Assembly: GCA_963620575.1 (NCBI GenBank)
Contig: CAVFBC010000001.1
Coordinates: 111,912-175,911, forward strand
From: Alistipes putredinis
GTDB taxonomy: Bacteria > Bacteroidota > Bacteroidia > Bacteroidales > Marinilabiliaceae
Reading direction: 5' to 3'
DNA: 64,000 nucleotides
Shown: piece by piece, positions 22,201 through 63,797 of the stretch
How the letters are laid out: the number at the start of each line of letters is the position of its first letter
How positions within the stretch are numbered: the stretch's first letter is position 1
Program-made: the position numbers and the translations under genes
The notes under the pieces: model-generated
What the model saw: only the letters and a program-made list of their open reading frames with translations
What the model was told of the DNA's origin: nothing
Databases searched by the model: none

Positions 22201-22406
22201 TCAAGACTCTCCAGCTCGGCTACACGCTGCCCGCCTCTGTCGTCCAGAAAGCCAAACTTCAGAAGGTGAGGTTCTACGTCAGCTGTACCAACCTCTTCAC
22301 AGTCACAGATTACACGGGCTATGACCCTGAAGTGGGCGGTGGTGTGGACTACGGCAACTACCCTCAGAGCCGCACTGTATCTTTTGGACTCAACATGAGT
22401 CTCTAA
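19203..22406 (+). CDS. susC: SusC/RagA-family TonB-dependent transporter
   Basis: Carboxypeptidase-regulatory-like N-domain (SGKVTSKDDGLPLPFVNISIKGTTTGTISDIDGNFSL), plug region VVAVGYGTMRKSDVTGAV and a C-terminal barrel ending FGLNMSL. Confidence 0.95.
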   Translation: MKTLKNIRRWMTATAFALLTPIYLLAQTTSVSGKVTSKDDGLPLPFVNISIKGTTTGTISDIDGNFSLKINKGDVLVFSFIDCKKIEMPYDGQQSLSVIMERDDQMLEEVVAVGYGTMRKSDVTGAVTSVKAESLKQTPSAGLDQALQGRAAGVTVNANSGQPGASAEVRIRGIGSVVGDCSPIYVVDGIITDDISFLAPSDIVSTEILKDASATAIYGSRGANGVILVTTKSGGKGHGTIMVDAYFGIQNRWRKLDLMRRDEMALTKLRIDPMKNSAGQLADYMNDGFNEWMQVYNISNSDYAPAAMTKSNPTGFDYSSVDTDWQDEVFRSNAKVQSYSISMDGGNDNGHYAFSSNYFSQDGTIIGSDYMRFTVRLNADYKIKDWLKIGEHISFSTSKGRNAMNNSASPGASIISAALAMAPWDPTHYPAGTISASGKRDLSNQIAASTNFKNVTNPFSMVQHSHPEDKVERLIGDVYFDVTPFDGLVWHTSVSLDMGVNRSRLFKEKYEHSSFDKADKNFISSSMTRSSTFAEETTVTYSKKIGVNFFSVMAGQTMEQYVSYKIGGSGASVVNAQNSNNWYLNQATEDRTEAGDEVARNRRLSFLGRVHYSLMDKYMVTFNFRGDGTSKFPQNTWGFFPSTALAWRISEEDWMPEASSLAYLKLRLGWGRVGNDKVGDDAFTMKMFTSGPTFVDYPLGKDQSLASGSAVLTLVNKNGRWENNEQWNAGIDFGLLGGDLEGSVDWFLRDTKDALLYVDSPAHAGNRYSLLANVGTLRNHGVEIQLDYHKQAGPVNFSVGGNVSFIKNKLRQLNGGQPLWGDRTVCDKGLAMNTFWGYEFQGVYQSDEEALAHQFAYSADEISVHAGDAKYNDRNGDGKINDDDRTDLGSPFPWLTYGFNLSANYMGFDLSAFFQGVYGNKIYNALRERTEGAGDECTLSTSMRNVWVGYKDAIRNNLSKRGVDWQAMENRSGTIPNPTGASSNKYNNDRLIEDGSYLRLKTLQLGYTLPASVVQKAKLQKVRFYVSCTNLFTVTDYTGYDPEVGGGVDYGNYPQSRTVSFGLNMSL

Positions 22407-22445
22407 CCAGCAAAATCTGTTTAACCTCATCAAGAACCCTTCATC

Positions 22446-27556: not shown

Positions 27557-29788
27557 ATGATATTTAAAACAAATCGAATAATCCTTGCGGCGGCGTCGCT
27601 CGCTCTCGTCTCGTGCTCACAGCCTAAGACAGATCCAGTTGAGCAGAAGATAGACGAGCTTTTGCTCAAAATGACGCTTGACGAGAAAATTGGTCAGCTC
27701 AACCAGATTAACGGTGTTGGCGGGGCCTCGCCTGAAATGGTCGAGCAGGTGCGCAGTGGCATGGTCGGCTCCATCCTCAACGAGGTCGACCTCGCCACTG
27801 TCAATGAGTTGCAACGAGTGGCAGTTGAGGAGTCGCGTCTCGGAATACCACTTGTATATGCCAGAGATGTAATCCATGGTTTCAAGACCATCTTCCCCAT
27901 CCCGCTTGGTCAGGCGGCAACATGGAACCCGACGCTCGTCGAGCGTGGTGCGCGCATCGCTGCCATTGAGGCCTCGACGAGGGGCGTGAGGTGGACTTTC
28001 TCGCCCATGATTGACGTGTCGCGAGACGCCCGTTGGGGACGAATAGCTGAGTCTTTTGGCGAGGACACTTATCTTTCCACAGTCCTTGGCGAGGCCATGA
28101 CACTCGGGTATCAGACCTCGGACCTTTCGCAGCCTACGTCCATAGCGGCTTGTGCCAAGCATTTCTGCTGCTATGGCGCTTCTGAGTCAGGACGTGATTA
28201 TAACACAACCTGGATTCCTGAGGTCCAGTTGCGTGACACTTATCTGCCTCCATTCCGCCGCCAGGTTGAGATTGGCGCAGCCACTTTCATGTGCTCTTTC
28301 AATGACATCAATGGCGTGCCATCTTCAGGCAATGAACATCTCAATATTGACATCTTGCGAAAAGAGTGGAGTTATGATGGTCTTTTGGTCTCAGACTGGA
28401 ATAGCATTGGCCAGATGGTAACCCATGGAGTGGCAGAAGACCTGGGGCAGGCTTCCGAATTGGCTCTTCACTCGCGTGTGGGCATGGACATGATGTCTTT
28501 CGCATATACTCAAAATGCCAAGAGGTTAGTGAATGAGGGAAAGGTCTCAATGGATGAGGTTGACAATGCTGTGCGTGATGTGCTCCGACTCAAATTCCGT
28601 CTTGGGCTTTTTGATAATCCTTACACTGTAGTCTCAAACGATTCAACCTATTGCGACAAGTTCCTTGCCGATGCGAGGGAAGCTTGTATCCAGAGCACCA
28701 TCTTGCTCAAGAATGACGGTCTCCTCCCTTTGGCGGATGGCCTCTCGGTTGCTCTCATAGGTCCATTGGCCGACAGCGGCGTCGATCAGATTGGCACCTG
28801 GTCTTTCGATGGCGAGCCAGACCATTGTGTCACTCCTGTTGCGGCCTTCAAGCAAGAGGCTGCGTCACGCGTGGCAATTGCTGAACCCGGACTCAAATAC
28901 AGCCGAGACAAGGCGGATGATGATTTTAACAGGGCGCTTAATGCTGCTGCAAAGGCTGATGTGACTATTTTCTTCGCTGGTGAGGAGTCTATTCTTTCTG
29001 GAGAGGCCAAATGCAGGGCTGATGTTTCACTCCCGGGTCGTCAGACTGAATTGCTTGAGGCTCTCAAGAAGGCTAAGCGTAAGGTCGTGCTCGTTGTCAT
29101 GGCTGGCCGTCCGCTCGCCATCAGCAAGGAAGTCGAGTTGGCCGACGCTGTTCTCTATCAGTTCCATGGCGGGACGATGGCTGGGCCTGCATTGGCAGAT
29201 GTTATTCTTGGCAAGGCGTCACCCTCTGGCCGTCTGCCGGTCTCGCTCCCGCGAATGTCTGGTCAAGTCCCTCTTTACTATAACCATAAGAATACAGGAC
29301 GCCCTGCTGAGAACATTGTCATGATGGACGATATTGTCCCGGGTGCGCCTCAGTTCTCACTCGGTGCCACAAGCTACCACCTCGATGCAGGTGATGGCCC
29401 TCTCTTCCCCTTTGGTTTTGGACTCTCCTACGGGTCGTTTGACTATGCCGCGCCGACGCTCTCGTCCACGACAATGAGCATGACCGACACACTCACCATC
29501 TCTTGTGACATCAAGAACACAAGTGGTGTCGATGCCATGGAGACGCCCCAGTTGTATGTCCGTGATCGAGTCGGCTCACTCTGTCGACCCATCCGTGAGC
29601 TCAAAGGGTTCACCAAGGTGATGATTCCCGCAGGTCAGACCACAACTGTGTCATTTAAACTTACTGCCAATGACTTGGCTTTCTGCCATTTGGATAATAA
29701 GTTTTATGCCGAGGCTGGCGACTTTGACCTATGGGTGGCTTCTAATGCGGAGGCTGGTCTGCCGGTCCGCTTCACGCTAACTAAGTAA
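27557..29788 (+). CDS. GH3 beta-glucosidase
   Basis: Lipobox LVSC; MTLDEKIGQL, KHFCCYGASESGRDYN and GLLVSDW (nucleophile Asp); C-terminal Fn3-like domain. Confidence 0.92.
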   Translation: MIFKTNRIILAAASLALVSCSQPKTDPVEQKIDELLLKMTLDEKIGQLNQINGVGGASPEMVEQVRSGMVGSILNEVDLATVNELQRVAVEESRLGIPLVYARDVIHGFKTIFPIPLGQAATWNPTLVERGARIAAIEASTRGVRWTFSPMIDVSRDARWGRIAESFGEDTYLSTVLGEAMTLGYQTSDLSQPTSIAACAKHFCCYGASESGRDYNTTWIPEVQLRDTYLPPFRRQVEIGAATFMCSFNDINGVPSSGNEHLNIDILRKEWSYDGLLVSDWNSIGQMVTHGVAEDLGQASELALHSRVGMDMMSFAYTQNAKRLVNEGKVSMDEVDNAVRDVLRLKFRLGLFDNPYTVVSNDSTYCDKFLADAREACIQSTILLKNDGLLPLADGLSVALIGPLADSGVDQIGTWSFDGEPDHCVTPVAAFKQEAASRVAIAEPGLKYSRDKADDDFNRALNAAAKADVTIFFAGEESILSGEAKCRADVSLPGRQTELLEALKKAKRKVVLVVMAGRPLAISKEVELADAVLYQFHGGTMAGPALADVILGKASPSGRLPVSLPRMSGQVPLYYNHKNTGRPAENIVMMDDIVPGAPQFSLGATSYHLDAGDGPLFPFGFGLSYGSFDYAAPTLSSTTMSMTDTLTISCDIKNTSGVDAMETPQLYVRDRVGSLCRPIRELKGFTKVMIPAGQTTTVSFKLTANDLAFCHLDNKFYAEAGDFDLWVASNAEAGLPVRFTLTK

Positions 29789-33248: not shown

Positions 33249-37309
<4,061 letters not shown>

Positions 37310-39200: not shown

Positions 39201-39367
39201 CTATGCGTTTACTGTTGAGAGGTTTATATTATTTATATCTGCTGCGAAAATAATCAAAACTATTCTAAGTACAGATAAGCAATAAAAAAGAAACAGGTTT
39301 GCCCGTTTTTCGTAGAATTATTGCGAAATTTATGCGCATTTTGCCACGACTCTATTAAAAATTGTCC

Positions 39368-41149
39368 ATGAAGAAGTTTAACACCAACAGAATCAGTTTC
39401 TTGGTGCTCGGCCCACTTGGCTTGTTCATCATCCTTATTCTCGGCATCTCCTTTTACGTTTATTTCGCCTTGAAGGCTGATCTCGAAAAGTTGCAATATG
39501 ACAGTCTGACCACCTGCCTGAGCAACCTCCGCGAGAGCATGGATCAGCGTCATGCTGGTTTTGAGCGGGCGGCTGGCCTTTTCAATGATGAGTATGACAC
39601 TTTCTACGATGCTGTGGCCGAAAATGACACCGCCACCATCGAGGATGAGCTTAAGTGGTCCGCATCCCCTGCGCAGGCTGCGGGCTATATATTTGTCAAC
39701 ATGGATGGTGACATCGTCGTCTCGAGTGTCGCACGCAAATATATTGACGAGGAAAAGTTGAGGGAGGTGACTGAGGCTACCGATAAGATGAGCATGATCA
39801 CGGCTGCTGGCGACTTCCTCGGTGACATTGTGACCGAGTACACTTCGTTTGTGGTTAAAAATTTTGATGGAGAGAAGATTGGCATTGTCTACCTCTTGGC
39901 GAGTGACCCCGATTCGCAGATCAGCACCATTTCGCTCCGCAAGCAGATTGGTGGTGATTCTTTCGTCTTCTTCGGTGACAAGTGCGTCCTCTGCACCAAC
40001 GAGGCGCGCGACCCGTCATCTGTCGTGCTCGACCCTGACATCCGCAAGACTGTCTATGAGAAGATGACGGCTTGGAACGGCACCTCCAACATGCTTGGCC
40101 GTCAAGCATATATGTCGTCTGTTCCACTCCTTGACTACACAGGTCGCACAATTGGCTCAATCCTAGTCAAGGCAGACACAAGCAGCACCGACGCTATTAT
40201 TGACTCTGTGCAGTTCATTTTGCCTGTTGTCATCGTAGTTCTCGTTTGCATCTTCGTACTCCTTGCCATCCGACTGAAGAGAAAACTCATTAACCCCATT
40301 GAGAAACTCGTAGGAACACTTGACCGTATTGCTCAGGGCGACTTGACTCAGGTGATTGAGGATGACAATAATTGTGTTGAGATATCAAATCTCACAAAGA
40401 GTATCAGGATAACTGAGGATCGCATCCGCAATGTCATCATCCCTATCCATGACACAGCAGAGGCTCTTCTGAATGCCTCCGGTCAGCTCCAGAGGGCCTC
40501 GGAGAGCCTCTCCAATGCGGCTAACCGTCAAGCTGCCTCACTTGAGGAAATATCCAGCTCTATGGAGGAGATGGGCGCCAACATCCAACAGAACACCGAT
40601 AACTCTCTCCACACCAACAAACTGACTGAGGAGATGAGCGCTATGGCGACAAGGCTCGGCAAAGCCAGTGGCAACAGCTTCGAGGCAATTCAGAATATCG
40701 CAAACAACATTAATGACATCAACGACCTTGTCAGCCAAACAAACATCCTGGCTCTCAACGCCTCTGTCGAGGCTGCGCGAGCTGGTGAACATGGCCAAGG
40801 TTTCGGTGTCGTCGCAAAAGAGGTAGGGCGACTTGCTGAGCAGACCCATGAGACGGCCGACAGCATCAACGAGACTGCAACCAGCAGTATCAATGAGGCC
40901 GAGGAGAGCTATAACCAGACGCAGCAACTCATGCCCCGAATTGAGAAGATTGCGAGCCTCATCAAGGAGATTACTACCGCCTCTGTCGAGCAGTCATCCG
41001 GCGTTCAGCAGGTTAACACAGCCATAATGGACCTCAACCGCGTCACCCAGCAAAATGCCGCTGGCGCTGAGGAGATTGCCGCAAGCACAGTGCAAATGCG
41101 TGACATGATTGACGAGCTTAATAAGTCAGTCTCTATTTTCAAGATTTAG
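39368..41149 (+). CDS. Methyl-accepting chemotaxis protein with a roughly 250-aa extracytoplasmic Cache-like sensor, HAMP and MA domains
   Basis: Two TM helices, HAMP INPIEKLVGTLDRIAQGDLTQ and the conserved hairpin tip [40 protein letters not shown] at 39368; the ORF track starts at an upstream TTG. Confidence 0.92.
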   Translation: MKKFNTNRISFLVLGPLGLFIILILGISFYVYFALKADLEKLQYDSLTTCLSNLRESMDQRHAGFERAAGLFNDEYDTFYDAVAENDTATIEDELKWSASPAQAAGYIFVNMDGDIVVSSVARKYIDEEKLREVTEATDKMSMITAAGDFLGDIVTEYTSFVVKNFDGEKIGIVYLLASDPDSQISTISLRKQIGGDSFVFFGDKCVLCTNEARDPSSVVLDPDIRKTVYEKMTAWNGTSNMLGRQAYMSSVPLLDYTGRTIGSILVKADTSSTDAIIDSVQFILPVVIVVLVCIFVLLAIRLKRKLINPIEKLVGTLDRIAQGDLTQVIEDDNNCVEISNLTKSIRITEDRIRNVIIPIHDTAEALLNASGQLQRASESLSNAANRQAASLEEISSSMEEMGANIQQNTDNSLHTNKLTEEMSAMATRLGKASGNSFEAIQNIANNINDINDLVSQTNILALNASVEAARAGEHGQGFGVVAKEVGRLAEQTHETADSINETATSSINEAEESYNQTQQLMPRIEKIASLIKEITTASVEQSSGVQQVNTAIMDLNRVTQQNAAGAEEIAASTVQMRDMIDELNKSVSIFKI

Positions 41150-49108: not shown

Positions 49109-51151
49109 CTATTTAATCTCTATCTCATCCTGTCGTTTCATAATTGTCACGCTAAGTGAAGTCACTCTTTTCCATGCAGCGGCAATTTCGCATTTGGGTC
49201 CTATTATGTATCTCGCATTGTGATTGACAGCAATTTCTGGTCCTAAATTGCAGTTGATCAGGTATATGTCGCAAATGGGCAATGTGTCTATATAATCAGT
49301 GTTGATAACGGCTATTCTCATCTCTTGGGTGCTGATTATAATCCCCCGCCCCAAGCTCTTTATCTCTTTTTCTGTCCACCGCCTCTTTTTCTCGATGTGC
49401 CTTACTGCTTTTATCGCGCTGTGGTTGGTAGTGTCGCTTACATAGGAGACCGAGTTATGCCTGTCTTCTGATAAGACTATGCCCGTCTCGCCATTTGAAC
49501 AGAACAAACATACCCCACTCTCTCGTCTCGTTTCATTGGCAATAAGTACGGATAAGAAGCAAACGAGCGAAAAGCAAAGTGCGCCAAGCCAATGCCGGTC
49601 ACGTTTGCGAAAGGCATAAAAGGCGATGACTATGAGGAGAGACAACGTGGCCGCCTCTGCCATTCCAAAGGCTGTGCATCCTATGGTGGCCATGGGAAGT
49701 GAGGCTGCCCATTCACAATAGCCAATCACCAACGCCAGACACTTGTCTATTACCCATCCTAATCCATTGCTTAATAGAGGAATCCAAGATGTTAACGGGC
49801 AAATGACCGCCCCGATGAAGATCCATCTGATGGGTTCAAGCACCACAAGGTTGTTTATCCAGAAATATGTGGGGAATGAGTTGAAGCAGTAGAGCATGAT
49901 GGGCAAAGTTGCCAATTGAGCCACAATGCTTATTGACAAACAGCCATAAAGCCACTTGATTGGCCCTCTTTGCCTCTCTACAAAGGGTCGCAATGTTGGC
50001 GTGGCAGACAATATTCCTCCCACGGCAGCAAAACTTAACCATAAGCCCGCACTGGTCACAGACGACGGGTCAGCTAATAGGATGACAAACAAGGCAGCCC
50101 ACAAGGAGTGGAAACTTGGCAACCTGCGGCCCAGCACACTCTCTAATGTAAGAAAACTAAACATTATGGAGGATCTTACTATCGAGGGCGCCATGCCTAC
50201 TAAAAGCGCATATGCCCATATGACGCACAATGTTATGACTCCTGATGCGCGTCCCCCAAAAAGCAGGCCCATAAGGAACATAACGGCTGTTGATAAGATG
50301 CCAACATGGAGACCGCTGACAGCAAGGACATGCCCTGTGCCGCAGTCAGAGAACGCCTGTTTGACCTCCTGCGGCAACTCGCTCTTGTCCCCTAAAACGA
50401 GGGCTTGCAAAAAGACTTGGCTCTCATGGCTAACCCCGACCCTTTCAAGTGACGAGAAGAAAAAATCATGCGCCATGCCGCTTATTGATGCCATGTCCAC
50501 AGACTGGCCTTCAATTGTGGCGCTGTCTGCCCTCACTAAGAATCTGAGTCCCTGACTCTTCAGGTACTCCATATAGTCGAAGTCGCCAAATATGTCACTT
50601 CGCGGTGTCGTAAATCGCCCACTTAGCTTCACCTTCATGCCGCACTTCAGACTATGCGAGCTGTCGCAGTCTGTGGCTTTGCTTAGATTGATGGTTCTGC
50701 CCTTGAAGTTGACAAGACCCTTTATTTCTTGGGCATCTTTCCCATTGATAGCGTATGCTCTTACTACTGCGCTCACACGGTTTGTGTCTCGCTTTGTGAT
50801 GTGAGTTATCTCTCCTTCAATCTCGCACTTGCCACCTTCTGTGATAAAGTCGCCCCTGCCGTCACTGCCTCTCGTTACGCCTACTGACATGATAAACAGG
50901 GCGAATGCGCAGATTAGCAGACCGTCGCCCCACCATAGCTTGCACAAATAGCGACGTAGTGAACTTATTATTATGACAATTGCGCACAGGGAGACCGTCA
51001 GAGGCCACAAGTTTACCCCCAATGTTGTCTCTGAGCCAACATATGTTCCAATGGCCAGCATGACAGCCCATGGGGCTAAAGGCCTCTTTCGGACTGACAT
51101 CAAGACATCTTTCGAGAGATGCGAGATTATGTTTGTTAAGATGCGTCTCAT
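49109..51151 (-). CDS. comEC: ComEC/Rec2-family DNA internalisation channel protein
   Basis: 680 aa. It has N-terminal TM helices, an OB-like DUF4131 region (VKLSGRFTTPRSD..FDYMEYLKSQG) and a multi-TM competence domain (GTGHVLAVSGLHVGIL). The start may be the internal Met at about 51100. Confidence 0.8.
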   Translation of the reverse strand: MRRILTNIISHLSKDVLMSVRKRPLAPWAVMLAIGTYVGSETTLGVNLWPLTVSLCAIVIIISSLRRYLCKLWWGDGLLICAFALFIMSVGVTRGSDGRGDFITEGGKCEIEGEITHITKRDTNRVSAVVRAYAINGKDAQEIKGLVNFKGRTINLSKATDCDSSHSLKCGMKVKLSGRFTTPRSDIFGDFDYMEYLKSQGLRFLVRADSATIEGQSVDMASISGMAHDFFFSSLERVGVSHESQVFLQALVLGDKSELPQEVKQAFSDCGTGHVLAVSGLHVGILSTAVMFLMGLLFGGRASGVITLCVIWAYALLVGMAPSIVRSSIMFSFLTLESVLGRRLPSFHSLWAALFVILLADPSSVTSAGLWLSFAAVGGILSATPTLRPFVERQRGPIKWLYGCLSISIVAQLATLPIMLYCFNSFPTYFWINNLVVLEPIRWIFIGAVICPLTSWIPLLSNGLGWVIDKCLALVIGYCEWAASLPMATIGCTAFGMAEAATLSLLIVIAFYAFRKRDRHWLGALCFSLVCFLSVLIANETRRESGVCLFCSNGETGIVLSEDRHNSVSYVSDTTNHSAIKAVRHIEKKRRWTEKEIKSLGRGIIISTQEMRIAVINTDYIDTLPICDIYLINCNLGPEIAVNHNARYIIGPKCEIAAAWKRVTSLSVTIMKRQDEIEIK

Positions 51152-53943: not shown

Positions 53944-54061
53944 GTCACAGCCCAATTCCACTTGATGCACCCGACAGCCCATAACGTTTTACTCTTTATT
54001 GCGTATTACAGCCCGGTTGCCCGATAAAATCATTACTTTTGCGTTGAAAAACATCCCAAAC

Positions 54062-54994
54062 ATGGAAGTCTTCAGCCAAATAGAGAACTATGCCGCGCTC
54101 CCATCGGCGGTCTGCGTAGGTGTCTTCGACGGGCTTCACTTGGGCCACCGCGCGCTCCTTAGCCAACTCAAGGAAGAGGCTGAGAAACGCGGGTTGCTTT
54201 CAGTGGTAGTCACTTTCGACCCTCATCCGCGTATAGCGCTCTCAAAAGGCAATGACCGCGTCGGGCTTCTCACCACCCAGGAGGAAAGGTTGGAACTTTT
54301 GCGAGAGATGGGGATCGACAGGGTTGTCGTCATACCTTTCACCCGTGAGTTCTCTGATCTTACCGCACGGCAGTTCTTGAGAGAATGGGTCGCTGGCAAG
54401 CTTATGGCTCGATTCCTGCTCATGGGCTATAATCATCACTTCGGCTCTGACGATGTCAAGCCGGAAGATTACATATCCTTGGCGGCATCTGAGGGCATAG
54501 AGGCGAAAAGAGGTGAGGCCTTCTCTCTCGCTGGCGGTGTCAAGGTCAGCTCGTCGGAGGTGCGCAAAGCTCTTTCTGATGGCGACGTGGCGCATGCGGC
54601 CCTTCTGCTTGGCAGGGACTATGAGTTCAGTGGCGAGGTATCGCATGGCGACGCCATAGGACGGGCGATAGGCTTCAGGACTGCTAATGTGACCCCCTCC
54701 GATTTCAGCAAGCTTATCCCGGCTGATGGGGTCTATTCCGGTCTCGTCTGCTGGGAGGGACAGCGCCCTCTCCAGTCCGTCATAAATGTCGGTACGCGGC
54801 CCACGGTAGGTGGTAACGACAGAAGGATCGAGGCTCACATAATGAATTTCGATTCGGATATATACGGGCAGCACGTGACGGTCTCTTTCCACGAGAGGTT
54901 GCGAGACGAGTTGAGGTTTGACGACCTCGAATCTCTTGCATGCCAAATAAAAGACGATATGCGAAAAGCGGCAATATCATTTGAAAATCGTTGA
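54062..54994 (+). CDS. ribF: Bifunctional riboflavin kinase / FAD synthetase RibF
   Basis: GVFDGLHLGH nucleotidyltransferase motif and a C-terminal riboflavin kinase (GFRTANV...EAHIMNFDSDIYG). The start is set at the internal ATG MEVFSQ. Confidence 0.9.
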   Translation: MEVFSQIENYAALPSAVCVGVFDGLHLGHRALLSQLKEEAEKRGLLSVVVTFDPHPRIALSKGNDRVGLLTTQEERLELLREMGIDRVVVIPFTREFSDLTARQFLREWVAGKLMARFLLMGYNHHFGSDDVKPEDYISLAASEGIEAKRGEAFSLAGGVKVSSSEVRKALSDGDVAHAALLLGRDYEFSGEVSHGDAIGRAIGFRTANVTPSDFSKLIPADGVYSGLVCWEGQRPLQSVINVGTRPTVGGNDRRIEAHIMNFDSDIYGQHVTVSFHERLRDELRFDDLESLACQIKDDMRKAAISFENR

Positions 54995-55173
54995 CAAATG
55001 TTTAACTTTGTTGCTGAGTATCCGAGCGTATCGGGTAATACAAACAAACAGAAATATAGCCTTTTATAAAACAGGCGCTATCTCGAAACCAAATAATCAC
55101 TTAACTCTAAAAACAGAGCTATTCTATTATGTTGGGAAATAATGATGGCTCCTTTACAAAAGAACGACCGAGC

Positions 55174-55701
55174 ATGCCTATGATAAAGAAATTACTTGTC
55201 ACTCTGGTTTTAACCCTGACGATGGCGCATGGCGCATTCGCCCAGGATCAATTGGCAAAGCCTAAGGCTCTGCTCACTCTTAGTTTCATCCGTTACCTCG
55301 GTTGGAGCGACGCTGCGAGGCAGGGTGACTTTGTCATCGGCGTGGTCCGCGACAGGGAGCTCGCCTCTTGGTTGACGTCTCAGTCCGAAGGTAAGAAATT
55401 CGGCTTCCAAAATGTCGTCGTCAAGAATTTCAAGTCTGTCGACGAGGTGGTAGACTGTCAGGTAATCTACGTCTCCCACAACATCAGCTTCGCCCGCAAC
55501 GCCTCCACCATCATCGACAAGGTCGGCAAGGACACACTGATTATCACGGAAGAGGAGGGCGCCGTCAAGAGCGGGGCGATGATTAACTTTGTCATCCGCG
55601 ACAGCAGGCTCAAATTCGAGCTCAGCAAGAGCAACGCACAAATGTCTAACATACAGTTCGGTCAGAAACTAACTGACATGACTGCAGCGATAAACATGTA
55701 A
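55174..55701 (+). CDS. YfiR-family (DUF4154) periplasmic protein
   Basis: Signal peptide [23 protein letters not shown]|QDQ. The pattern FIRYLGW...VIGVV.D...CQVIYVS...LIITEEEG....GAMINFV..D.RLKFELS..NA matches DUF4154 as I recall it. Confidence 0.6.
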
Positions 55702-55714: not shown

Positions 55715-57460
55715 ATGAAGGGTATATCTCTCAAGGAGCGTGTCTCGAAGATGAATCTGGCGCAGAAGCTCGTGTCGGGCTTCGGCGTCATTTGCGTGTT
55801 CATCCTCCTCAACTCAATCCTTACAATAGCCATCCATTTCTACACCCGCAACCTTCAGGAGACTGAGGCTAACGAGTATCTCCCCGTCAAGTCTAACCTC
55901 GAGGTCATGATGAACAAGATTGTCGAGAGCCGCAGACTTGTGGTAAACTGGGTGTTTGTTGATCATCAGCCCAACACGCCAGATAAGGTCAAGCTCGCCG
56001 CCATCGTCAATGAGGAGTTTGACGCTGTCCTCAATGAGGTCAAGGAGGCTACTGCCGATTGGGAGACTCCCTTCACTGACACTCTCGCTATCGTTGACAC
56101 CAAGGTTCACGAGATGTTCGACCTTGAGAAGACCGTCATGAGCAACCTCTCCTCTTTCGACTCGTATGACGACCCCATCCTCCTCATGGAGAGTGAAATG
56201 CTCGTCCAGAGTGATGGCGATGTTGAGATGGCTGAGCGTGAGTTGCAGACTCTCATGTCCTCCCTCAGCGGCATTTGCGACGCCAAGTGCAATGACATTA
56301 AGCATTCTATTAATACCTCTGCCTCCATCCAGCTCGTCTTTGTCATCCTCATGAGTCTCCTCGTGCTCGGTGTGGCTGTGGTTGTCGGCCGAGTCCTCTA
56401 TATGAGCATCATTAATCCTCTCAAACGAGGTGTCGTGTTTGCCGAGGCAATTGGCAAGGGTGACCTCACGGCGCAAGTCCAGGTCGACCAGGATGATGAG
56501 ATTGGTCAGCTGTCCAAAGCCCTCCAGGGCATGGTCGAGAGCCTCAAACACACTGTCGTCTCGATTGAGCGCAACGCTAACGAGCTCGTCACCTCGGGCT
56601 CCCTCCTCAACACTTCAAGCCAGAAACTGTCAAAGGGCGCAAGTGAGCAGGCCGCAAGCGCCGAGGAGGTCTCTACGGCTATTGAGCAGATGGTGGCCAA
56701 CATTGACCAGAACACTGAGAACGCCATAGCAACCGAGAAACTGACCGCCTCGACTGTTGAGAATGTCAACCTCTCAAGCCAGTACTCTGGCGAAGCTGCC
56801 GAGGCTATGAAGACTATATCTGAGAAAATCTCAATCATCTCAGACATTGCGTTCCAAACCAATATACTTGCACTCAACGCTGCCGTCGAGGCCGTTCGAG
56901 CAGGTGAGCAGGGTCGCGGCTTCTCTGTCGTGGCTGCCGAGGTCCGTAAACTCGCTGAGCGAAGCAAGCAGGCCGCCAATGAGATTGTATCCCTTGTTAA
57001 CAAGGGTCTGAAGGTCACTCAGATGGCTGGTGAGAAGGCAAAGGCTCTTGTACCGGACATTGAGAAGACCACCGTGCTCATCAAGGAGATTTCTGCGGCA
57101 AGTATCGAGCAGAAAACAGGTGCCGAGCAGATTAACATGGCGATGCAGAACCTCAACGTCATCACTCAGGAGAACGCTTCAAGCTCCGACGAGTTGACTA
57201 ACAGCTCTGTCCTCCTCTCTTCTCTCGCTTCTAACCTCAAGCAGGCTGTCGGCTATTTCAAGCTTGATGAGGAAGCCGAGGCTGCGACCGGGGCAACGGC
57301 CGAGGTCGAGAAAAAGCCAGAAGAGCCCAAGGCAAAGGTTGAGACGGCAAAGCCAGAGCAGACTCGCCATGAAGACCCAAAGCCTATGGGTGGCGTCAAG
57401 ATTAACCTCGGAAACATTAACTCTAAAGAGTTCGATCTCGACAATTACGAGAAGTTCTAA
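55715..57460 (+). CDS. Methyl-accepting chemotaxis protein (helical periplasmic sensor, HAMP, MA domain, long C-terminal tail)
   Basis: Two TM helices, [27 protein letters not shown] and hairpin tip [37 protein letters not shown]. The tail ends ...DLDNYEKF. The start could instead be Met13 (55751). Confidence 0.92.
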
Positions 57461-57587: not shown

Positions 57588-57899
57588 ATGAGCAGCGTTT
57601 ATAGCCTCGAGATTTCACAGGCTGACGGCAAGAAGAACTTGAAGTTCGGAGGTGACCTTGTCATTAACCATATTGACAAGATGACCAAGGAACTCCGTGA
57701 GGCTCTCCCCTCGCCTACCGATTTGCGTGTCGAGGTGGCGGATCCGCAGAATATCGACATGACGTTCATTCAGCTTGTAGTAGCCCTCCGCCGGATGACG
57801 GAGAACGCTGGCAAGAAGTTCGAGGTGCAGACCACTCTGAAGGACGACCTGAAGGAGCTGGTTCAAAAGGCCGGCTTAGACAAGGAGTTGAAAGTTTAA
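57588..57899 (+). CDS. STAS-domain protein (anti-sigma-antagonist fold)
   Basis: 103 aa. The alternating beta/alpha pattern KFGGDLVINHIDKMTKELREAL...LRVEVADPQNIDMTFIQLVVALRR is typical of single-domain STAS proteins. Confidence 0.6.
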   Translation: MSSVYSLEISQADGKKNLKFGGDLVINHIDKMTKELREALPSPTDLRVEVADPQNIDMTFIQLVVALRRMTENAGKKFEVQTTLKDDLKELVQKAGLDKELKV

Positions 57900-57969: not shown

Positions 57970-58335
57970 ATGGCAAAGACAGTTCTTATTGTAGACGACT
58001 CCGAGAGTATCCGCGAGGTGGTCAACTTCACTTTGACCAACGAGGGCTACGATGTTTTGGTTGGCGTTGACGGCGAGGACGCACTCAAGTTCCTCGATGG
58101 CAGGCCTATCGACATTGTCATCACTGACCTCCACATGCCTAACCTTGACGGCCTCGGTCTCATCCGCAAGGTTCGTGAGATGGATGCTTACAAACACATT
58201 CCTATCCTTTTCCTCACAACTGAGAGCCAGACAGAGAAGAAGATGGAGGCCAAGGAGGCTGGCGCGACGGGTTGGATCATCAAGCCTTTCGTCCCCGCTA
58301 AGCTCCTCAGCGCCATCTCAAGGGTGCTCCGTTAG
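57970..58335 (+). CDS. cheY: CheY-like single-domain response regulator
   Basis: DD (LIVDDS), phospho-acceptor Asp in VITDLHMP, Thr in LTTES and Lys in IIKPF. Confidence 0.92.
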   Translation: MAKTVLIVDDSESIREVVNFTLTNEGYDVLVGVDGEDALKFLDGRPIDIVITDLHMPNLDGLGLIRKVREMDAYKHIPILFLTTESQTEKKMEAKEAGATGWIIKPFVPAKLLSAISRVLR

Positions 58336-58372: not shown

Positions 58373-60529
58373 ATGTTAGACAGATTTCAACAGAAATTCG
58401 TAGAGGAAGCGCAGGACAACGTGGCAGCCATCGAGGAGGCCTTGTTCGAGCTCGAAAAGAGTCCGGATGACAAGGAGATCGTCGAGAGGCTGTTCCGCTC
58501 CATGCACACCATCAAGGGTAGCGGCGCAATGTTCGGGTTTAACGACCTGAGCCATTTCACCCACAACCTTGAGACTCTCTATGACTGTGTCAGAAACGAC
58601 ACGGTGAAGGTGAACAGTGATATCATCTCGCTCACTTTCGAGAGTTTGGACTACATCCGGCAGCTTCTTGAGGTCGGCGAGGGAACTCTTACTAACCCCG
58701 ATGACATTCAGCGGCAGAAGGATTACATTGCCAAGATTACCAAGTATTTCCCCGAGGGTCAGACTCTGACCCTCAGCAGTGCCGAGAAGGCGGCCTTAGC
58801 TGCTAAGCAGGCTGCCGGTGGGGCGGCAGCACAGGCTCAAGTCCCTGCTCAGCCCGAGGTCAAGGGGCCAAAGAACTATTTAGTCACCTTCGCGCCTTTT
58901 GAGTCCCTTCTCAATAATGGCACGAACCCCCTCTTCATGCTCGACGACCTCACTGCGCTCGGCAAGTACCGCACCGTGGCTTTCACAGGAGTGGTTCCGG
59001 CACTTGACACGTTCGAGCCTCTGAATCTATATGTCAAATGGCAGGTTGTCCTCAGCACTGATCAGGACGTCAATGACATTAAGGATGTCTTCATCTTCGT
59101 CGAGGATGAGTGCCGAATGGACATTGTCGAGTTGCCCGAGGGTGATATCATCGGTGCGGCAGATAAACTGGACCCGATTCTGAAAAAGGCCATTGAGACT
59201 CAGACCGAGCTCAAGGCTGATGATTTCGTCATCTTCAAGTCTGCTCCTAAACCTGAGCCTGCCAAAACTGCCAAGGCGGCCGAGCAGAGCAAAACAGCCG
59301 GCGCCGCTAAGCAGCAAGAGAGCAAGATAGCGAGTATCCGAGTCTCTGCTGAGAAGATTGATGACCTTGTTAATGCGGTCTCTGAGCTTGTCACCATGCA
59401 GGCTCAGCTCAACCTCTTGGCGGGCAAGCAGACAGACCAAAATCTTGTCGCGATCGCCGAGCAGATGGAAAAGATAACCCGCCAGTTGCGCGAGAACTCT
59501 TTCTCCATCTCCCTTATCCCTCTTCAGGGTGAGCTCGTCCAGTTCCAGAGGCTTGTCAGGGACTTGTGCAACAAGCTCGGTAAGCAAATGGAGTTTGTCG
59601 TGGAGGGTGGTGAGATTGAGCTTGACAAGACCATCATTGACCATCTCAAGGACCCGTTGCTCCATATCATAAGAAACTCAGGCGACCATGGCATTGAGAT
59701 GCCCGATGAGCGAATTAAGAAGGGTAAGAACCCTATGGGTACCATTCTTCTTAAGGCTTTCTATTCGGGCTCGTCAGTCATAGTTCAGGTCTCTGATGAT
59801 GGCAAGGGCATGGACCCTGACAAGATCTTGAAAAAGGCTGTTGAGAAGGGGCTTGTGGATAACACGGCGCGCCTTTCCAAAAAGGAGGTCCTTAACCTAA
59901 TTTTTGCCAGCGGCTTCTCTACTGCCGATAAGGTGAGTGATGTGTCTGGCCGAGGTGTCGGCATGGATGTCGTCAAGAGCAAGATTGCCGAGATACGAGG
60001 CGAGGTCACTGTTGACTCCGAGGTGGACAAGGGTACTACCATCACCATGGAGCTCCCACTGACGCTTTCCATTATAGACGGTCTTCTTACCCGTATAGGT
60101 GGTGAGCAGTATGTATTCCCATTCACTAATGTTGAGCGAATCCTCCAACCCTCAGAGGTCGTGATGAGCGAGAACGGAATGGGCGACTTTTTCACCTATA
60201 ACGGTCAGCAGCTCGTTTTCATCGACCTCAATAAGATTTTCAACGGCTCGACCACAGATTTGTCTAAAGCCAAGCTGCTCATTGTCGGGCAAGGCGATAA
60301 GCGTGTCGGCATGATTGTGGATGCTGTCTTGGGTGAATATCAGATTGTTGTCAAACCCTTGGGACGTTTCCTCCGCTCGGTGGACATGATTTCGGGTGCC
60401 TCTGTCATGGGCGATGGCTCCCTCTCTCTCATCATTGACCCGGGTCGTCTCGTCAACTACTTCAACCAGTTGCGTTTCCGTAGGAAGGCCGCTTTTGCGG
60501 CTCAGGCGGGTGACGCCCAAAACGCATAG
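58373..60529 (+). CDS. cheA: Chemotaxis histidine kinase CheA
   Basis: Hpt with SMHTIKGSG, a dimerisation region, HATPase (DDGKGMD, GRGVGMDVV) and a C-terminal CheW-like domain. Confidence 0.95.
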   Translation: MLDRFQQKFVEEAQDNVAAIEEALFELEKSPDDKEIVERLFRSMHTIKGSGAMFGFNDLSHFTHNLETLYDCVRNDTVKVNSDIISLTFESLDYIRQLLEVGEGTLTNPDDIQRQKDYIAKITKYFPEGQTLTLSSAEKAALAAKQAAGGAAAQAQVPAQPEVKGPKNYLVTFAPFESLLNNGTNPLFMLDDLTALGKYRTVAFTGVVPALDTFEPLNLYVKWQVVLSTDQDVNDIKDVFIFVEDECRMDIVELPEGDIIGAADKLDPILKKAIETQTELKADDFVIFKSAPKPEPAKTAKAAEQSKTAGAAKQQESKIASIRVSAEKIDDLVNAVSELVTMQAQLNLLAGKQTDQNLVAIAEQMEKITRQLRENSFSISLIPLQGELVQFQRLVRDLCNKLGKQMEFVVEGGEIELDKTIIDHLKDPLLHIIRNSGDHGIEMPDERIKKGKNPMGTILLKAFYSGSSVIVQVSDDGKGMDPDKILKKAVEKGLVDNTARLSKKEVLNLIFASGFSTADKVSDVSGRGVGMDVVKSKIAEIRGEVTVDSEVDKGTTITMELPLTLSIIDGLLTRIGGEQYVFPFTNVERILQPSEVVMSENGMGDFFTYNGQQLVFIDLNKIFNGSTTDLSKAKLLIVGQGDKRVGMIVDAVLGEYQIVVKPLGRFLRSVDMISGASVMGDGSLSLIIDPGRLVNYFNQLRFRRKAAFAAQAGDAQNA

Positions 60530-60531: not shown

Positions 60532-60978
60532 ATGGATGAAATTAAGTCGGTCACCTCTTTCAAGGTTGGCGGTGAGTACTTCGCCTTCGAGACCGAGTCC
60601 ATAAGACATATTCTTGAGTATAGCGCACCCACTCGTGTGCCGCTGACCAAGCCTTTCATAAAGGGGATTATCAACAACCATGGTAACATGATTCCCGTGG
60701 TTGATTTCCGTGTCCTTGTCGGCAAAGAGTCTGATGACAGCCAACCCGAGCAAAGCATCGTGGTGGTGGCCTTTGAGACGGCTGGCAAGGAGGAACTTTG
60801 TGGTTTCAAGGTCGATGAGATGGACGATGTCTTTGAGTTCTCGCACGAGAATTTCAAACCCGAGGTGGTCATCGATGTGAACCCTGAGGTACAACGCGCG
60901 GCGGCCGGGACTATCAAGGTGGGCGACAAGTTTGTCTACCTCCTCAAGACGTCTGAGCTTGCCGACGCCCTTGTTTAA
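60532..60978 (+). CDS. cheW: CheW coupling protein
   Basis: 148 aa CheW-like fold (FKVGGEYFAFETESIRHIL...IKGIINNHGNMIPVVD); 2-nt gap after cheA. Confidence 0.88.
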   Translation: MDEIKSVTSFKVGGEYFAFETESIRHILEYSAPTRVPLTKPFIKGIINNHGNMIPVVDFRVLVGKESDDSQPEQSIVVVAFETAGKEELCGFKVDEMDDVFEFSHENFKPEVVIDVNPEVQRAAAGTIKVGDKFVYLLKTSELADALV

Positions 60979-61005
60979 ATTTCTCATCACTCCTAAACAG
61001 AGTCA

Positions 61006-61494
61006 ATGGAAGAAGAAATAATCAACTCGTTCCTGACCTTCGAGGTTAATGGCGGAATATACGGATTGCACGTGGCTAAGGTCGTCGAGATTATGGCCTA
61101 CGTCAAGCCTCAGGCCACAGGTGCTTCTGTCCCAGCCATGATTGGCATGGTCGAGCACCGCGGACGAGTGTTGCCACTCATAGATAGTGGGCTGAAGTTT
61201 AACGCAGGCCCAGTTAAAATCACTGAGCAGACCTATATTATAGTCATTTCAGTCCGAAATGGAGACGAGTTGTTCGACGTAGCCTTGGCTGTCGATCTTG
61301 TCCGCGAGGTGATGGAGATACCAGAGGACAAGCGTCTTGCCATTGACACAACATACAAGCCTGGCTATGTGCTCTTCGCAAGCCAGACTCCTGACGGACT
61401 TGGCATGTTCTTCGACCCCGACAAGGTGTTCACAGACACCGATGTCATTAAGATGGCCGAGTTTACAGCCAAGGCCAATAAACAGACCTGCTGA
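61006..61494 (+). CDS. cheW: Second CheW coupling protein
   Basis: 162 aa, FLTFEVNGGIYGLHVAKVVEIM...MIGMVEHRGRVLPLID. Confidence 0.85.
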   Translation: MEEEIINSFLTFEVNGGIYGLHVAKVVEIMAYVKPQATGASVPAMIGMVEHRGRVLPLIDSGLKFNAGPVKITEQTYIIVISVRNGDELFDVALAVDLVREVMEIPEDKRLAIDTTYKPGYVLFASQTPDGLGMFFDPDKVFTDTDVIKMAEFTAKANKQTC

Positions 61495-61498: not shown

Positions 61499-62377
61499 AT
61501 GCCAGACCTGACTTCATCGCCCTCGGGAAACATAGGAGACGAGTTTGACTGCTTCAGGGCCGAGCTTTCGCAAGCCGACTTCAAGCAGTTTAGCGAGTAT
61601 ATTTATGCGCAGTTCGGAATCAAGATGCCCGAAATCAAGCGCGTGATGCTCCAAGGCCGCCTCCTGAAACGGATCCGGGAGCTCAAGATGAAGTCTTATA
61701 CCGAATACAAGAAATACTTTTTCAGCCCCGAGGGGCAAAGAAACGAGCTTTATAACTTTCTTAGTGTAGTCACTACCAACAAGACCGATTTCTTCCGCGA
61801 GCCTGTCCACTTCGACTTCCTCCGCAATGTGGCTCTCCCGGAGTTCATGGCTGAGGGGCGAAACCGCATCAATGTTTGGAGCGCGGCTTGCTCAAGCGGA
61901 GAGGAGCCCTACACGATGGCTGTGGTCCTCAGTGAGTTCGCCGAGCAGCACCCGGGCTTCTCTTTTAGCATCCTTGGCTCTGACATATCGCAAAACGTCC
62001 TTGAGAAAGCAGCGCGTGGAGTCTATCCGGAAAAATTGGTTGACATGATCCCTCTCGAACTAAAGAGGAAATATTTCCTCCGCAGTAAGGACAGAACTAA
62101 CCCGACAGTGAGGGTCTCACCAATGCTTCAGAGGAACTTTTCTCTGAAATATTTAAACCTGATGGACCCTGTTTACGATATAAACGTTGAATTCGATGTG
62201 GTCTTCTGCCGAAATGTGTTAATTTACTTCGACAGGGAGACTCAGGAGAAGGTTATCCAAAAAATCTGCACCAAGCTCAGAAAGGGAGGATACCTCTGCA
62301 TCGGACACTCGGAGTCCATGAGTAACATGGATGTGCCACTCACTAACGTAAAGCCCACTATTTTCAAAAGAAACTAA
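61499..62377 (+). CDS. cheR: Chemoreceptor glutamate methyltransferase CheR
   Basis: N-terminal helical domain FKQFSEYIYAQFGI and SAM domain INVWSAACSSGEEPYTMA...VVFCRNVLIYFD. The start is set at the internal ATG 4 nt after the cheW stop. Confidence 0.92.
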   Translation: MPDLTSSPSGNIGDEFDCFRAELSQADFKQFSEYIYAQFGIKMPEIKRVMLQGRLLKRIRELKMKSYTEYKKYFFSPEGQRNELYNFLSVVTTNKTDFFREPVHFDFLRNVALPEFMAEGRNRINVWSAACSSGEEPYTMAVVLSEFAEQHPGFSFSILGSDISQNVLEKAARGVYPEKLVDMIPLELKRKYFLRSKDRTNPTVRVSPMLQRNFSLKYLNLMDPVYDINVEFDVVFCRNVLIYFDRETQEKVIQKICTKLRKGGYLCIGHSESMSNMDVPLTNVKPTIFKRN

Positions 62378-62387: not shown

Positions 62388-63311
62388 ATGGATATCAACA
62401 ACGTCACTGACAAACAACTGCTCAAGCTCCTCAAGCAAAGACTTGAGGATAAGTCTGAAATGGAGAAAAAATTCGCCGAGCTTCAGACTGAGTGCCAGAC
62501 TATGGGCAAGAGGCTTAAGGACTCTGAGGCTCTCAAGAGCCACTTCATATCGAATGTAACAAACGAGATTGTCAACCCTTTCACTTCCATCATCGGCCTC
62601 TCCAAGGCTATTCTCTCTGTCGAGAAGCAGGACTGGAAGAAAATTGTCTCGATGGTGGCTCTCATCCACAACGAGGCTTTCAATCTCGATTTTCAGCTGA
62701 AGAACATCTTCACGGCTGCGAAGATTGAGGCGGGAGAGATTCTTCCCAACGTCCAGAAGGTCCATATCAGGCAGCTCATTCAGAATGTCATAGACTCGTT
62801 CTCTATCGTGACCCGCAAGATGGGTATCGACATTGAGTTCGATTATGAGATACAGCTCGGTTTCGGCGAAAAGGACTATTATTTCAACACCGACTCCGAC
62901 AAGCTCAAACAAATCATCAGCAATATACTCAACAATGCCGTCAAGTACAGCTACAAGGACAGCAAGGTTATTGTTAAGTGTTGGATTGATGACGACCTGC
63001 TTTTCATCTCAATCCAGGATTTCGGAACCGGCATCTCGGAGAAGAACCAGAACATCATTTTTGAGAGGTTTAAGCGTCTCGACACCGGCATCAACTCTAT
63101 CAACCAGGGCCACGGTCTCGGATTGGCCATTGCCAAGGCTCTGCTCGACGTCCTTGAGGGCAAAATTGACATCAAGAGTGTCAAGGGCGAGGGCTCTACC
63201 TTCACCATCTCAATCCCGAGACTCAAGGTCGTCAACACAGACCCGTTCGGCGGCGATGATGGGGGAATGTTTTTTGACACGGACTCTGACGACGACGTGG
63301 ACCTGTTTTAA
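62388..63311 (+). CDS. Soluble histidine-kinase-like protein (DHp plus HATPase_c) with a degenerate H-box
   Basis: No TM or sensor domain. The H-box region reads KSHFISNVTNEIVNPFTSIIG, with Asn where the phospho-His is expected. N box ISNILNNAVKYS, G1 IQDFGTGI and G2 GHGLGLAI are intact. The tail is acidic. Confidence 0.8.
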   Translation: MDINNVTDKQLLKLLKQRLEDKSEMEKKFAELQTECQTMGKRLKDSEALKSHFISNVTNEIVNPFTSIIGLSKAILSVEKQDWKKIVSMVALIHNEAFNLDFQLKNIFTAAKIEAGEILPNVQKVHIRQLIQNVIDSFSIVTRKMGIDIEFDYEIQLGFGEKDYYFNTDSDKLKQIISNILNNAVKYSYKDSKVIVKCWIDDDLLFISIQDFGTGISEKNQNIIFERFKRLDTGINSINQGHGLGLAIAKALLDVLEGKIDIKSVKGEGSTFTISIPRLKVVNTDPFGGDDGGMFFDTDSDDDVDLF

Positions 63312-63323: not shown

Positions 63324-63797
63324 ATGGAGTATTCACAGCATTTCTTATACCCCTCGTCATTCTTCGCCAGTAAGGACCCATATGTGGTCAAGACTGTTCT
63401 CGGCTCATGTGTGGCGGTCTGTCTCTGGGACAAGACGTTGCACTATGGAGGCATCAACCACTATATGCTGCCCTATTGGACCGGAAATGACCTGGCTTCG
63501 CCCAAATATGGCAACATAGCCATTGAAAAACTTGTCGAGAAGATGAGGTTCATGGGCTGTCGGGTCGAGGACCTTGAGGCGAAAATCTTTGGCGGTGGCG
63601 AGCTCATCGATTCAATCGACGGACGCTCCGTGACGCAGATTGGCGAGAGGAACATCGAAGTGGCCAAGCGTTTGCTGGCCGAATATAAGATACCCATCGT
63701 AAGCTCGTGCGTCGGTGGAAAGAAGGGACGAAAAATCCTTTTCTTTACCGACAATGCAGAGGTCAGACACAAGTATCTCGATAAGAGGACTTTCTGA
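63324..63797 (+). CDS. cheD: Chemoreceptor glutamine deamidase CheD
   Basis: 157 aa, LGSCVAVCLWD catalytic-Cys motif and GGINHYMLP. Confidence 0.88.
   Translation: MEYSQHFLYPSSFFASKDPYVVKTVLGSCVAVCLWDKTLHYGGINHYMLPYWTGNDLASPKYGNIAIEKLVEKMRFMGCRVEDLEAKIFGGGELIDSIDGRSVTQIGERNIEVAKRLLAEYKIPIVSSCVGGKKGRKILFFTDNAEVRHKYLDKRTF

Follow-up and report, generated by a model that had tools for sequence, protein, structure and literature searches.

The 64,000-nucleotide window analyzed here (Alistipes putredinis assembly GCA_963620575.1, contig CAVFBC010000001.1, positions 111,912 to 175,911 of the forward strand) carries a chemosensory (che) gene cluster in which a gene resembling those of histidine kinases (HKs) lies between cheR and cheD. 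This gene, for which we use the working name psHK, meaning a His-less HisKA-type kinase-like gene, encodes a DHp+CA protein of HisKA type without the canonical phospho-acceptor His. Both the acceptor His and the Arg three residues after it (H+3) are gone, and the motif that survives in the H-box, N-E-x-x-N-P, contains the E-x-x-N phosphatase determinant of HisKA proteins. From its sequence, psHK is read here as a HisKA derivative that has lost kinase activity and works as a phosphatase of phosphorylated CheY (CheY~P) and possibly CheB~P, or that at the very least binds these phosphorylated receivers, a reading that we favor with a confidence just short of even. The first-pass annotation of this DNA had singled out the gene for its missing His. 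It had reported neither the surviving E-x-x-N motif nor the large conserved family, with its fixed cheR-psHK-cheD context, to which the gene belongs.

In a Pfam scan, HATPase_c matched residues 169-278 of psHK with an E value of 1.4e-24 (87 bits, compared with 28.5 bits for HATPase_c_2). HisKA matched weakly, with residues 50-116 aligned to profile positions 2-66 at 19.5 bits, which is below the gathering score of 26.9; the same profile gave an E value of ≤0.01 in 65 of 73 family members. Only HisKA and HATPase_c-type domains were found. There was no PAS domain, the Hpt (P1), dimerization (P3), and CheW-like (P5) domains of CheA were not detected, and no CheC-, CheX-, or CheZ-type match occurred at an E value of ≤0.01. 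A membrane segment was likewise absent, the maximum 19-residue Kyte-Doolittle mean being 1.21, compared with 3.04 for the methyl-accepting chemotaxis protein (MCP) of the cluster. The earlier description of psHK as a protein without a transmembrane or sensor domain was thus borne out, as was its statement that the ATP-binding N, G1, and G2 boxes are intact. The residues of the N-box (N179/N183), G1 box (D211-G213-G215), F-box (F225/R227/F228), and G2 box (G241-G243-G245) are all present; in the family alignment, N179, N183, G213, G241, and G245 are invariant and D211, G215, F225, R227, F228, and G243 reach 90% conservation or more. The AlphaFold2 (AF2) model (predicted local distance difference test score [pLDDT], 88; predicted template modeling score [pTM], 0.80) consists of helices at residues 8-77 and 83-114, the CA domain, and a disordered tail. 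Like other DHp proteins, psHK is presumably dimeric. Foldseek placed the model closest to HK853 in its RR468-bound complexes (template modeling [TM] score, 0.85; root mean square deviation, 2.9) and second-closest to DivL (4q20; TM score, 0.83), and the match to ATP-bound active WalK was poorer (TM score, 0.65).

When psHK was compared with PDB sequences by phmmer (E value of about 1e-31), the H-box of WalK/VicK, FVSNVSHELRTPLTS, paired with FISNVTNEIVNPFTS of psHK. Because the His of the WalK/VicK H-box pairs with Asn59, this Asn occupies the acceptor position, as the first-pass annotation had proposed; a His at that position was looked for by profile alignment, and Asn59 was found instead. 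All 120 of the closest homologues (65 to 92% identity) share the sequence K[SG]HFISN[VI][TS]NEI[VI]NPF. A distant set was obtained with HMMER from 1.8 billion cluster representatives, where 142 proteins of about 300 residues (33 to 49% identity) occurred among the best 150 matches, and 141 of them have Asn at the acceptor position. Since Asn was found in 120/120 close homologues and 141/142 distant representatives, chance and sequencing error are ruled out, and the alignments identify Asn at this site as a family trait and not as a sign of decay. The eight long proteins in the same best-150 list include five with a canonical SHE[IL]RTP-type H-box, the search pattern being unmatched in the other three. 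The short Asn-type proteins therefore constitute a distinct family.

Motif counts were based on a family alignment of 143 sequences, in which E60 is conserved in 134, N63 in 140, and P64 in 142, so that N59-E60-x-x-N63-P64 is nearly invariant. The first-pass annotation had described the residues after the acceptor as a change from RT to VN. The Arg is indeed lost, but HisKA proteins canonically have either Thr or Asn at H+4 (PMC3510030), and the Asn does not represent degeneration. The ratio of nonsynonymous to synonymous substitutions (dN/dS) between psHK and close relatives was 0.03-0.055, with dS near saturation, which indicates strong purifying selection on the coding sequence. A pseudogene or a sequencing error was ruled out by this ratio together with the conservation of Asn. 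The view that psHK is a decaying or nonfunctional HK relic could draw on the HisKA score below the gathering threshold and on the generic database annotation as a "HAMP domain-containing histidine kinase." However, the low dN/dS and the hundreds of intact orthologues in at least three phyla, with an invariant motif and a fixed gene position, leave it a negligible probability, and it is effectively refuted by the conservation data.

The closest homologues carry the names Bacteroidales, Marinilabiliaceae, Carboxylicivirga, Thermophagus, and Alkaliflexus, and the window, which also contains SusC/SusD, GH3, and GH2 genes, fits a Bacteroidales/Marinilabiliaceae-like genome. Across the family, members occur in Bacteroidota, Calditrichota, and Magnetococcales, the named groups being Marinilabiliales, Cytophagales/Ferruginibacter, Calditrichia, and Magnetococcales. 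Databases label these proteins "HAMP domain-containing (sensor) histidine kinase," yet they contain neither a HAMP domain nor the His. In NCBIfam, psHK is without a model of its own and matches generic HK models only, with scores far below the respective cut-offs. No account of a His-less HK family in Che clusters was found in the searchable full text, subscription literature being outside reach. By sequence membership, psHK is not a canonical histidine kinase, since the defining His is absent, and it is not a member of the DivL, RsbW, CheC/X, CheZ, or CheA families.

A His does lie exactly 7 residues upstream of the acceptor site, as the first-pass annotation had pointed out when it considered a kinase with a shifted acceptor. 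Such a kinase might be imagined at least for the Marinilabiliales subfamily: His52 precedes the site by two turns of the helix, lies on the same face, and is present in all 120 close homologues. In the family alignment, however, position 52 is His in only 72 of 143 members (Asn in 34 and Gln in 16), amid an otherwise nearly invariant H-box. This H-7 site is an ordinary variable polar position of K-S-x-F, at which canonical HKs from the same search have E or Q, and because the DHp is 94-100% identical within Marinilabiliales, the conservation of His52 there is uninformative. No other column could take its place, none exceeding 65% His and the highest being position 242 in the G2 box. A shifted-His kinase is very improbable, because half of the family lacks His52 while the H-box is otherwise invariant. 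As 141/142 representatives have Asn in place of the His and none of the other His positions is conserved, the alignments exclude His autokinase activity throughout the family.

Compared with HisKA kinases, the psHK family lacks the acceptor His and the H+3 Arg and would therefore have neither the kinase nor the phosphotransfer half-reaction. It also differs from them in having no sensor or membrane domain, in its putative docking peptide at the acidic C terminus, and in its constant place between cheR and cheD. What it keeps resembles the phosphatase side of these enzymes. Four HisKA kinases, CrdS and HK853 among them, need the Thr/Asn at H+4 only for phosphatase activity and the acidic residue at H+1 only for kinase activity (PMC3510030), and HisKA phosphatases are defined by an E/DxxT/N motif (PMC3510030, PMC3842833). 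Because E60, N63, and P64 are retained and the H+4 residue is needed only for the phosphatase reaction, a phosphatase function is suggested for psHK. CrdA~P decays with a half-life of 53.5 min alone, 0.7 min with wild-type CrdS, and 2.6 min with CrdS H371A, which keeps most of the phosphatase activity; CrdS itself works with the Che3 chemosensory system (PMC3510030). In the PvrS/RcsC system of Pseudomonas aeruginosa, kinase and phosphatase are split over two HK-like proteins, and the phosphatase is His independent (PMC3842833). With the HisKA transmitter phosphatases (HK853-RR468, EnvZ, and CrdS), psHK shares the fold (TM score of 0.85 to HK853), the acidic H+1 and Asn H+4 on helix alpha-1, and a cognate single-domain response regulator in the same operon. 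By analogy, we propose that the mode of action of psHK is closest to that of HisKA kinases in their phosphatase state and that its role is most like that of CheX, CheC, or CheT. CheX uses an ExxN pair and CheZ a DxxxQ pair for the same chemistry (PMC3510030). CheX/CheC/FliY and CheZ combine an acidic and an amide residue on a helix, comparable to E60-x-x-N63, but their folds are unrelated to that of psHK, which alone has a GHKL nucleotide-binding domain.

In the window, the + strand cluster reads YfiR-like, MCP, STAS_2, CheY, CheA, CheW, CheW, CheR, psHK, CheD, and psHK does stand between cheR and cheD as first annotated. The cluster order is retained in 32/32 related genome loci. A metagenome scan with the family motif matched at least 600 stretches, of which 80 loci were kept, with genes labeled by purpose-built hidden Markov models. 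CheR precedes psHK in all 96 loci with enough flanking sequence, and CheD follows it in essentially all of 101 loci, including those of Calditrichia and Magnetococcales; nine apparent misses of CheD were artefacts of the distance criterion, and maps or tblastn placed CheD after psHK in each. STAS was found within 9 kb upstream in 60 of 72 loci and CheA in 62 of 72. A Calditrichia genome has the order MCP-STAS-CheY-CheA-MCP-CheW-CheR-psHK-CheD-CheB, followed by unrelated genes, psHK and CheD are adjacent on Magnetococcales contigs, and one locus is permuted (CheW-CheR-psHK-CheD-CheB-STAS-CheY-CheA). In Bacteroidota, Calditrichia, and Magnetococcales alike, the cheR-psHK-cheD-cheB module is fixed, with STAS-cheY-cheA nearby. 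The receiver-domain proteins CheY and CheB (REC) share the cluster with psHK, in the window and in related loci. The adjacency of psHK and cheD parallels the cheC-cheD gene pairs of B. subtilis and T. maritima.

No CheC, CheX, or CheZ gene was found in those loci of roughly 20 kb whose genes were fully tabulated with Pfam. A close parallel is provided by the che operons of Sinorhizobium and Agrobacterium, which have the layout mcp-STAS-cheY-cheA-cheW-cheR-...-cheD with an extra phosphatase gene beside cheD (PMC12654446). There, the STAS-only protein CheS, encoded before cheY-cheA, binds CheA, and the extra gene, cheT, was assigned as that of a CheY~P phosphatase by its location in the che cluster (PMC12654446). 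On this layout, the STAS protein of the present cluster would be explained as a CheA-binding accessory, and a phosphatase slot would be left.

Evolutionary rates within the cluster were also compared. The DHp (residues 46-117) is the most conserved segment of psHK, with median identities of 100, 94, and 79% in three divergence groups, compared with 91, 71, and 51% for the whole protein and 94, 73, and 49% for the CA domain. CheY reached 98 and 96% in the two closer groups and about 70% in the third, with 47-77% in the distant loci holding a cluster CheY, and it is 93-100% identical across Marinilabiliales. The DHp and CheY are thus the slowest-evolving elements of the Che cluster, and STAS is its fastest-evolving protein (64, 37, and 25%). 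Distance-matrix covariation (partial Mantel) was highest for DHp-CheY, at r = 0.80, and was 0.00 for DHp-STAS.

From these observations we infer the following mechanism. psHK would descend from a HisKA histidine kinase that became unable to autophosphorylate on His and would have persisted as a partner devoted to the chemosensory response regulator. Its DHp hairpin would dock CheY~P, and possibly also the CheB receiver, as HK853 docks RR468. Asn63 (H+4), aided by Glu60 and the invariant Asn59, would position the water that hydrolyzes the aspartyl phosphate, and psHK would thereby be the phosphatase that terminates the signal in a chemosensory class in whose clusters no CheC, CheX, or CheZ was found. 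In the CA domain, the conserved ATP/ADP pocket would be a cofactor or regulatory site and not a phosphodonor site, and the acidic C-terminal peptide, ending E-x-F-COOH, would tether psHK to CheY, CheR/CheB, or the array. The pseudo-kinase scaffold mentioned in the first-pass annotation is still viable as the generic form of this phosphatase reading; the E-x-x-N motif had been overlooked there.

Several points weigh against a phosphatase. The main difficulty is the near-invariant ATP pocket, which would fit a kinase of a non-His substrate equally well and whose ATP-binding residues are not obviously needed by a pure phosphatase. For EnvZ, nucleotide is reportedly a cofactor of the phosphatase reaction, and the intact pocket of psHK could reflect such a role. 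The acceptor His is needed for phosphatase activity in some HKs, activity being lost in HK853 H260A (PMC5727384) and PleC H610A (cited in PMC3510030), and the His-to-Asn change could therefore have abolished this activity as well. The H-box is also conserved in the noncatalytic DivL, by analogy with which its conservation would be no proof of catalysis. The preference of the AF2 model for one HK conformation is weak evidence on function. Similarly, the mirror-tree control pair CheY-CheR gave r = 0.77, which reveals poor specificity, so that the DHp-CheY covariation is weak support for a partnership with CheY. Finally, the absence of CheC, CheX, and CheZ applies only to the scanned loci of about 20 kb.

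DivL of Caulobacter offers an example of a noncatalytic alternative. In a DivL-like pseudokinase, the DHp would bind CheY~P or CheB~P without hydrolysis, and psHK would be a phospho-CheY sensor, sink, or scaffold relaying to CheD, CheR, or the array via its tail or CA domain. DivL too has its acceptor His replaced family-wide, with the H-box and CA domain kept, and it is the second-best structural match to psHK. It acts by binding a phosphorylated single-domain response regulator, its transmitter being repurposed to sense response regulator phosphorylation (PMC4211667). The high conservation of the DHp and the conserved docking-type tail of psHK are in line with such a function. However, DivL has Tyr at the acceptor position, multiple PAS domains for output, and a membrane anchor, and it regulates CckA, whereas psHK carries Asn, lacks PAS domains (its only additions being a coiled-coil extension and a tail), is encoded within a Che operon, and retains what seems to be an intact ATP pocket. 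The near invariance of both Asn59 and Asn63 suggests a catalytic-grade constraint, and the clusters show no other phosphatase. We regard the DivL-like alternative as fairly unlikely. Another natural His-less H-box turned up in the family search: P0220 is a long multidomain kinase of 979 amino acids, and of its two HisKA modules the first has the acceptor site occupied by Gln (KSHFLANITQEIRTP), the second by a normal His.

The first-pass annotation had also raised an RsbW/SpoIIAB-like kinase acting on the STAS protein, whose gene it placed four genes upstream and which is in fact the sixth. In its broader form, the CA domain would phosphorylate Ser, Thr, or Tyr on STAS or another cluster protein, and the downstream GAF-PAS-SpoIIE (PP2C) protein would reverse the reaction in Marinilabiliales, amounting to a partner-switching module grafted on the Che pathway. 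In its favor, the N, G1, F, and G2 boxes vary little or not at all, HATPase_c_2 is also matched, the GHKL domain is common to psHK and RsbW/SpoIIAB, and STAS, psHK, and the PP2C phosphatase all lie within one conserved 17-gene cluster in the lineage of the window. However, RsbW and SpoIIAB are single GHKL domains of about 140-160 amino acids without a DHp, whereas psHK has 307 amino acids and the DHp+CA architecture, and its cluster contains no sigma factor. The phosphatase does not appear to be conserved with the family either. SpoIIE was found within 10 kb in only 29 of 57 loci, being present in Marinilabiliales clusters and absent from those of Calditrichia and the L124 locus, and from this distribution it appears to be a lineage-specific addition.

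The STAS protein itself argues against being such a substrate. In the PDB alignment with the anti-sigma antagonist TM1442, Met stands opposite the TM1442 Ser that follows the conserved Asp. Among 61 nonidentical cluster STAS proteins, compared with SpoIIAA and TM1442 as references (the TM1442 segment agreeing with this PDB alignment), the canonical phospho-Ser position is L, M, I, or V in all 61, and the next residue is Thr or Ser in 47, which would leave a possible site one residue past the canonical one. Asp57 and Gln62 are invariant in these orthologues, and the motif D-[LMI]-[TSG]-F-[IVL]-Q replaces the D-S-S-G-L-G phosphorylation loop of anti-sigma antagonists. STAS also evolves fastest and shows no covariation with the DHp, and its place before cheY-cheA matches that of CheS (PMC12654446). 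The comparison with CheS, made by shared STAS domain and position only, suggests a CheA-binding accessory. Overall, an ATP-dependent kinase of a non-His substrate is considered improbable, and the STAS-directed version of the first-pass annotation is disfavored.

The acidic tail DTDSDDDVDLF had been read correctly and is a family feature. Among 354 unique family tails, Phe occupies position -1 in 340 and Glu position -3 in 268, position -2 is I, T, L, or V, position -9 is Phe, and position -8 is Phe or Leu, giving the motif F-[FL]-x-D-[DE]-[ED]-E-[ILVT]-F-COOH, and the C-terminal 25 residues have a net charge of about -8. From its sequence, the tail looks like a short docking motif. The C terminus of CheZ binds CheY, and the acidic psHK tail ending in Phe recalls it. 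E. coli receptors end in a pentapeptide that tethers CheR and CheB. Glu at -3 and Phe at -1 are common to the psHK tail and the MCP pentapeptide, but the aromatic residue at -4 is missing from psHK. CheY (as for the CheZ C terminus) and CheR/CheB are thus both candidate partners. MCPs of the related clusters end in [ND][YF]E[KRSEN][FY], resembling the E. coli pentapeptide with Tyr or Phe instead of Trp, and the MCP in the window ends in NYEKF (57443-57457). An orphan MCP at 39362-41149 ends in ...SIFKI, without a pentapeptide. Mimicry of a CheD substrate or of CheC by psHK was considered and rejected: the MCP-like site [AST]xx[EQ][EQ]xx[AST] is not conserved in the family, and none is present in psHK of the window.

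Signal termination is essential in every chemotaxis pathway, and few phosphatase families are known. A bolder, decidedly tentative proposal is that psHK represents a previously unrecognized type of CheY~P phosphatase, the fourth besides CheZ, CheC/CheX/FliY, and CheT. Such a protein would be an HK made a permanent phosphatase by His-to-Asn replacement, with N-E-x-x-N catalysis, a nucleotide-gated CA domain, CheC-like coupling to CheD, and an E-x-F tether. It would define the class mcp-STAS-cheY-cheA-cheW-cheR-psHK-cheD-cheB of Bacteroidota, Calditrichota, and some Proteobacteria, including gliding, nonflagellated gut Bacteroidales. If psHK is a CheY~P phosphatase, it would explain signal reset in a widespread chemosensory class lacking CheZ, CheC, and CheX. 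It would also be a natural, evolution-made "phosphatase-only" HisKA protein and would bear directly on whether HK phosphatase chemistry requires the acceptor His, a matter still under debate. The family data flag thousands of database entries for "HAMP domain-containing sensor histidine kinase" as unable to be histidine kinases, and they draw attention to a Che system of gut and rumen Bacteroidales that is complete and highly conserved.

Coordinates of psHK, its segments, and the neighboring che genes in the window
Feature	Position	Strand	Basis
psHK	62388..63311	+	Open reading frame, 307 aa, ATG start; Pfam; homologues; dN/dS
psHK long helix alpha-1, residues 8-77: N-terminal coiled-coil-like extension and first DHp helix with H-box	62409..62618	+	AF2 model, pLDDT 88
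psHK DHp hairpin core, residues 46-116	62523..62735	+	Pfam HisKA match 50-116; identity profile
psHK His52 (CAC), proposed "shifted" acceptor, not kept in family	62541..62543	+	Family alignment
psHK Asn59 (AAC), phospho-acceptor His position	62562..62564	+	PDB alignments, family alignment, codon
psHK E60-I-V-N63-P64, HisKA E/DxxT/N phosphatase motif and conserved Pro	62565..62579	+	Family counts; PMC3510030
psHK CA (HATPase_c) domain, residues 120-278	62745..63221	+	Pfam, family conservation
psHK CA boxes	N-box 62922-62936, G1 63018-63032, F-box 63060-63068, G2 63108-63122	+	Family conservation
psHK acidic C-terminal tail, residues 280-307, ends ...FFDTDSDDDVDLF	63225..63308	+	pLDDT 50-65, predicted disordered
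YfiR/HmsC-like periplasmic protein (DUF4154)	55129-55701	+	Pfam 2e-25
Cluster MCP (transmembrane, HAMP, MCPsignal), ends NYEKF	55715..57460	+	Pfam; C terminus
STAS_2 protein, CheS-like position, no canonical phospho-Ser	57588..57899	+	Pfam STAS_2 2.7e-8; TM1442 alignment
cheY, proposed substrate; D9/D10/D53/T83/K105 read from sequence	57970..58335	+	Pfam Response_reg
cheA (Hpt, dimerization, HATPase_c, CheW-like), real kinase of the cluster	58373..60529	+	Pfam
Two cheW genes, 60532-60978 and 61006-61494	60532..61494	+	Pfam
cheR, 10-nt gap before psHK	61499..62377	+	Pfam CheR 6e-60
cheD, 12-nt gap after psHK	63324..63797	+	Pfam CheD 9e-27

Beyond the end of the window, the cluster was followed on contig L001, which is 100% identical and extends it (L001 11603-20664). 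After cheD come CheB, a GAF-PAS-PAS protein, a CheR-like protein, and a degenerate CheR-like protein (24 bits, below threshold), followed further on by a CheB gene with the catalytic domain only, a 335-amino-acid protein without a Pfam match, and the GAF-PAS-PAS-SpoIIE (PP2C) phosphatase. This continuation resembles a second set of methylation and demethylation genes, accompanied by a Ser/Thr phosphatase. In metagenome contig Ga0190306_1000020 (L122), CheR-psHK-CheD is tandemly duplicated, which suggests that the three genes behave as one module. The YfiR-like gene lies directly upstream of the MCP gene in nearly all of the 32 related genome loci. The usual partner of YfiR is a diguanylate cyclase, and here the YfiR-like protein may regulate the chemoreceptor from the periplasm.

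Four genome bins (L006, L011, L012, and L013) hold a Bacteroidales-type Che locus at about 91% protein identity under the labels Eggerthellaceae, Clostridium sp. CAG:343, Bifidobacteriaceae, and Pseudobutyrivibrio, and these bins are almost certainly mislabeled. Elsewhere, the window consists of ordinary Bacteroidota genes (8466-13034, 19203-24011, 27557-29788, 34064-37309, 49109-51151, and 53999-54994), which encode the large subunit of glutamate synthase, a SusC/SusD pair accompanied by GH3 and GH2 glycosidases, ComEC, and, just upstream of the che genes, a bifunctional riboflavin kinase/FAD synthetase.

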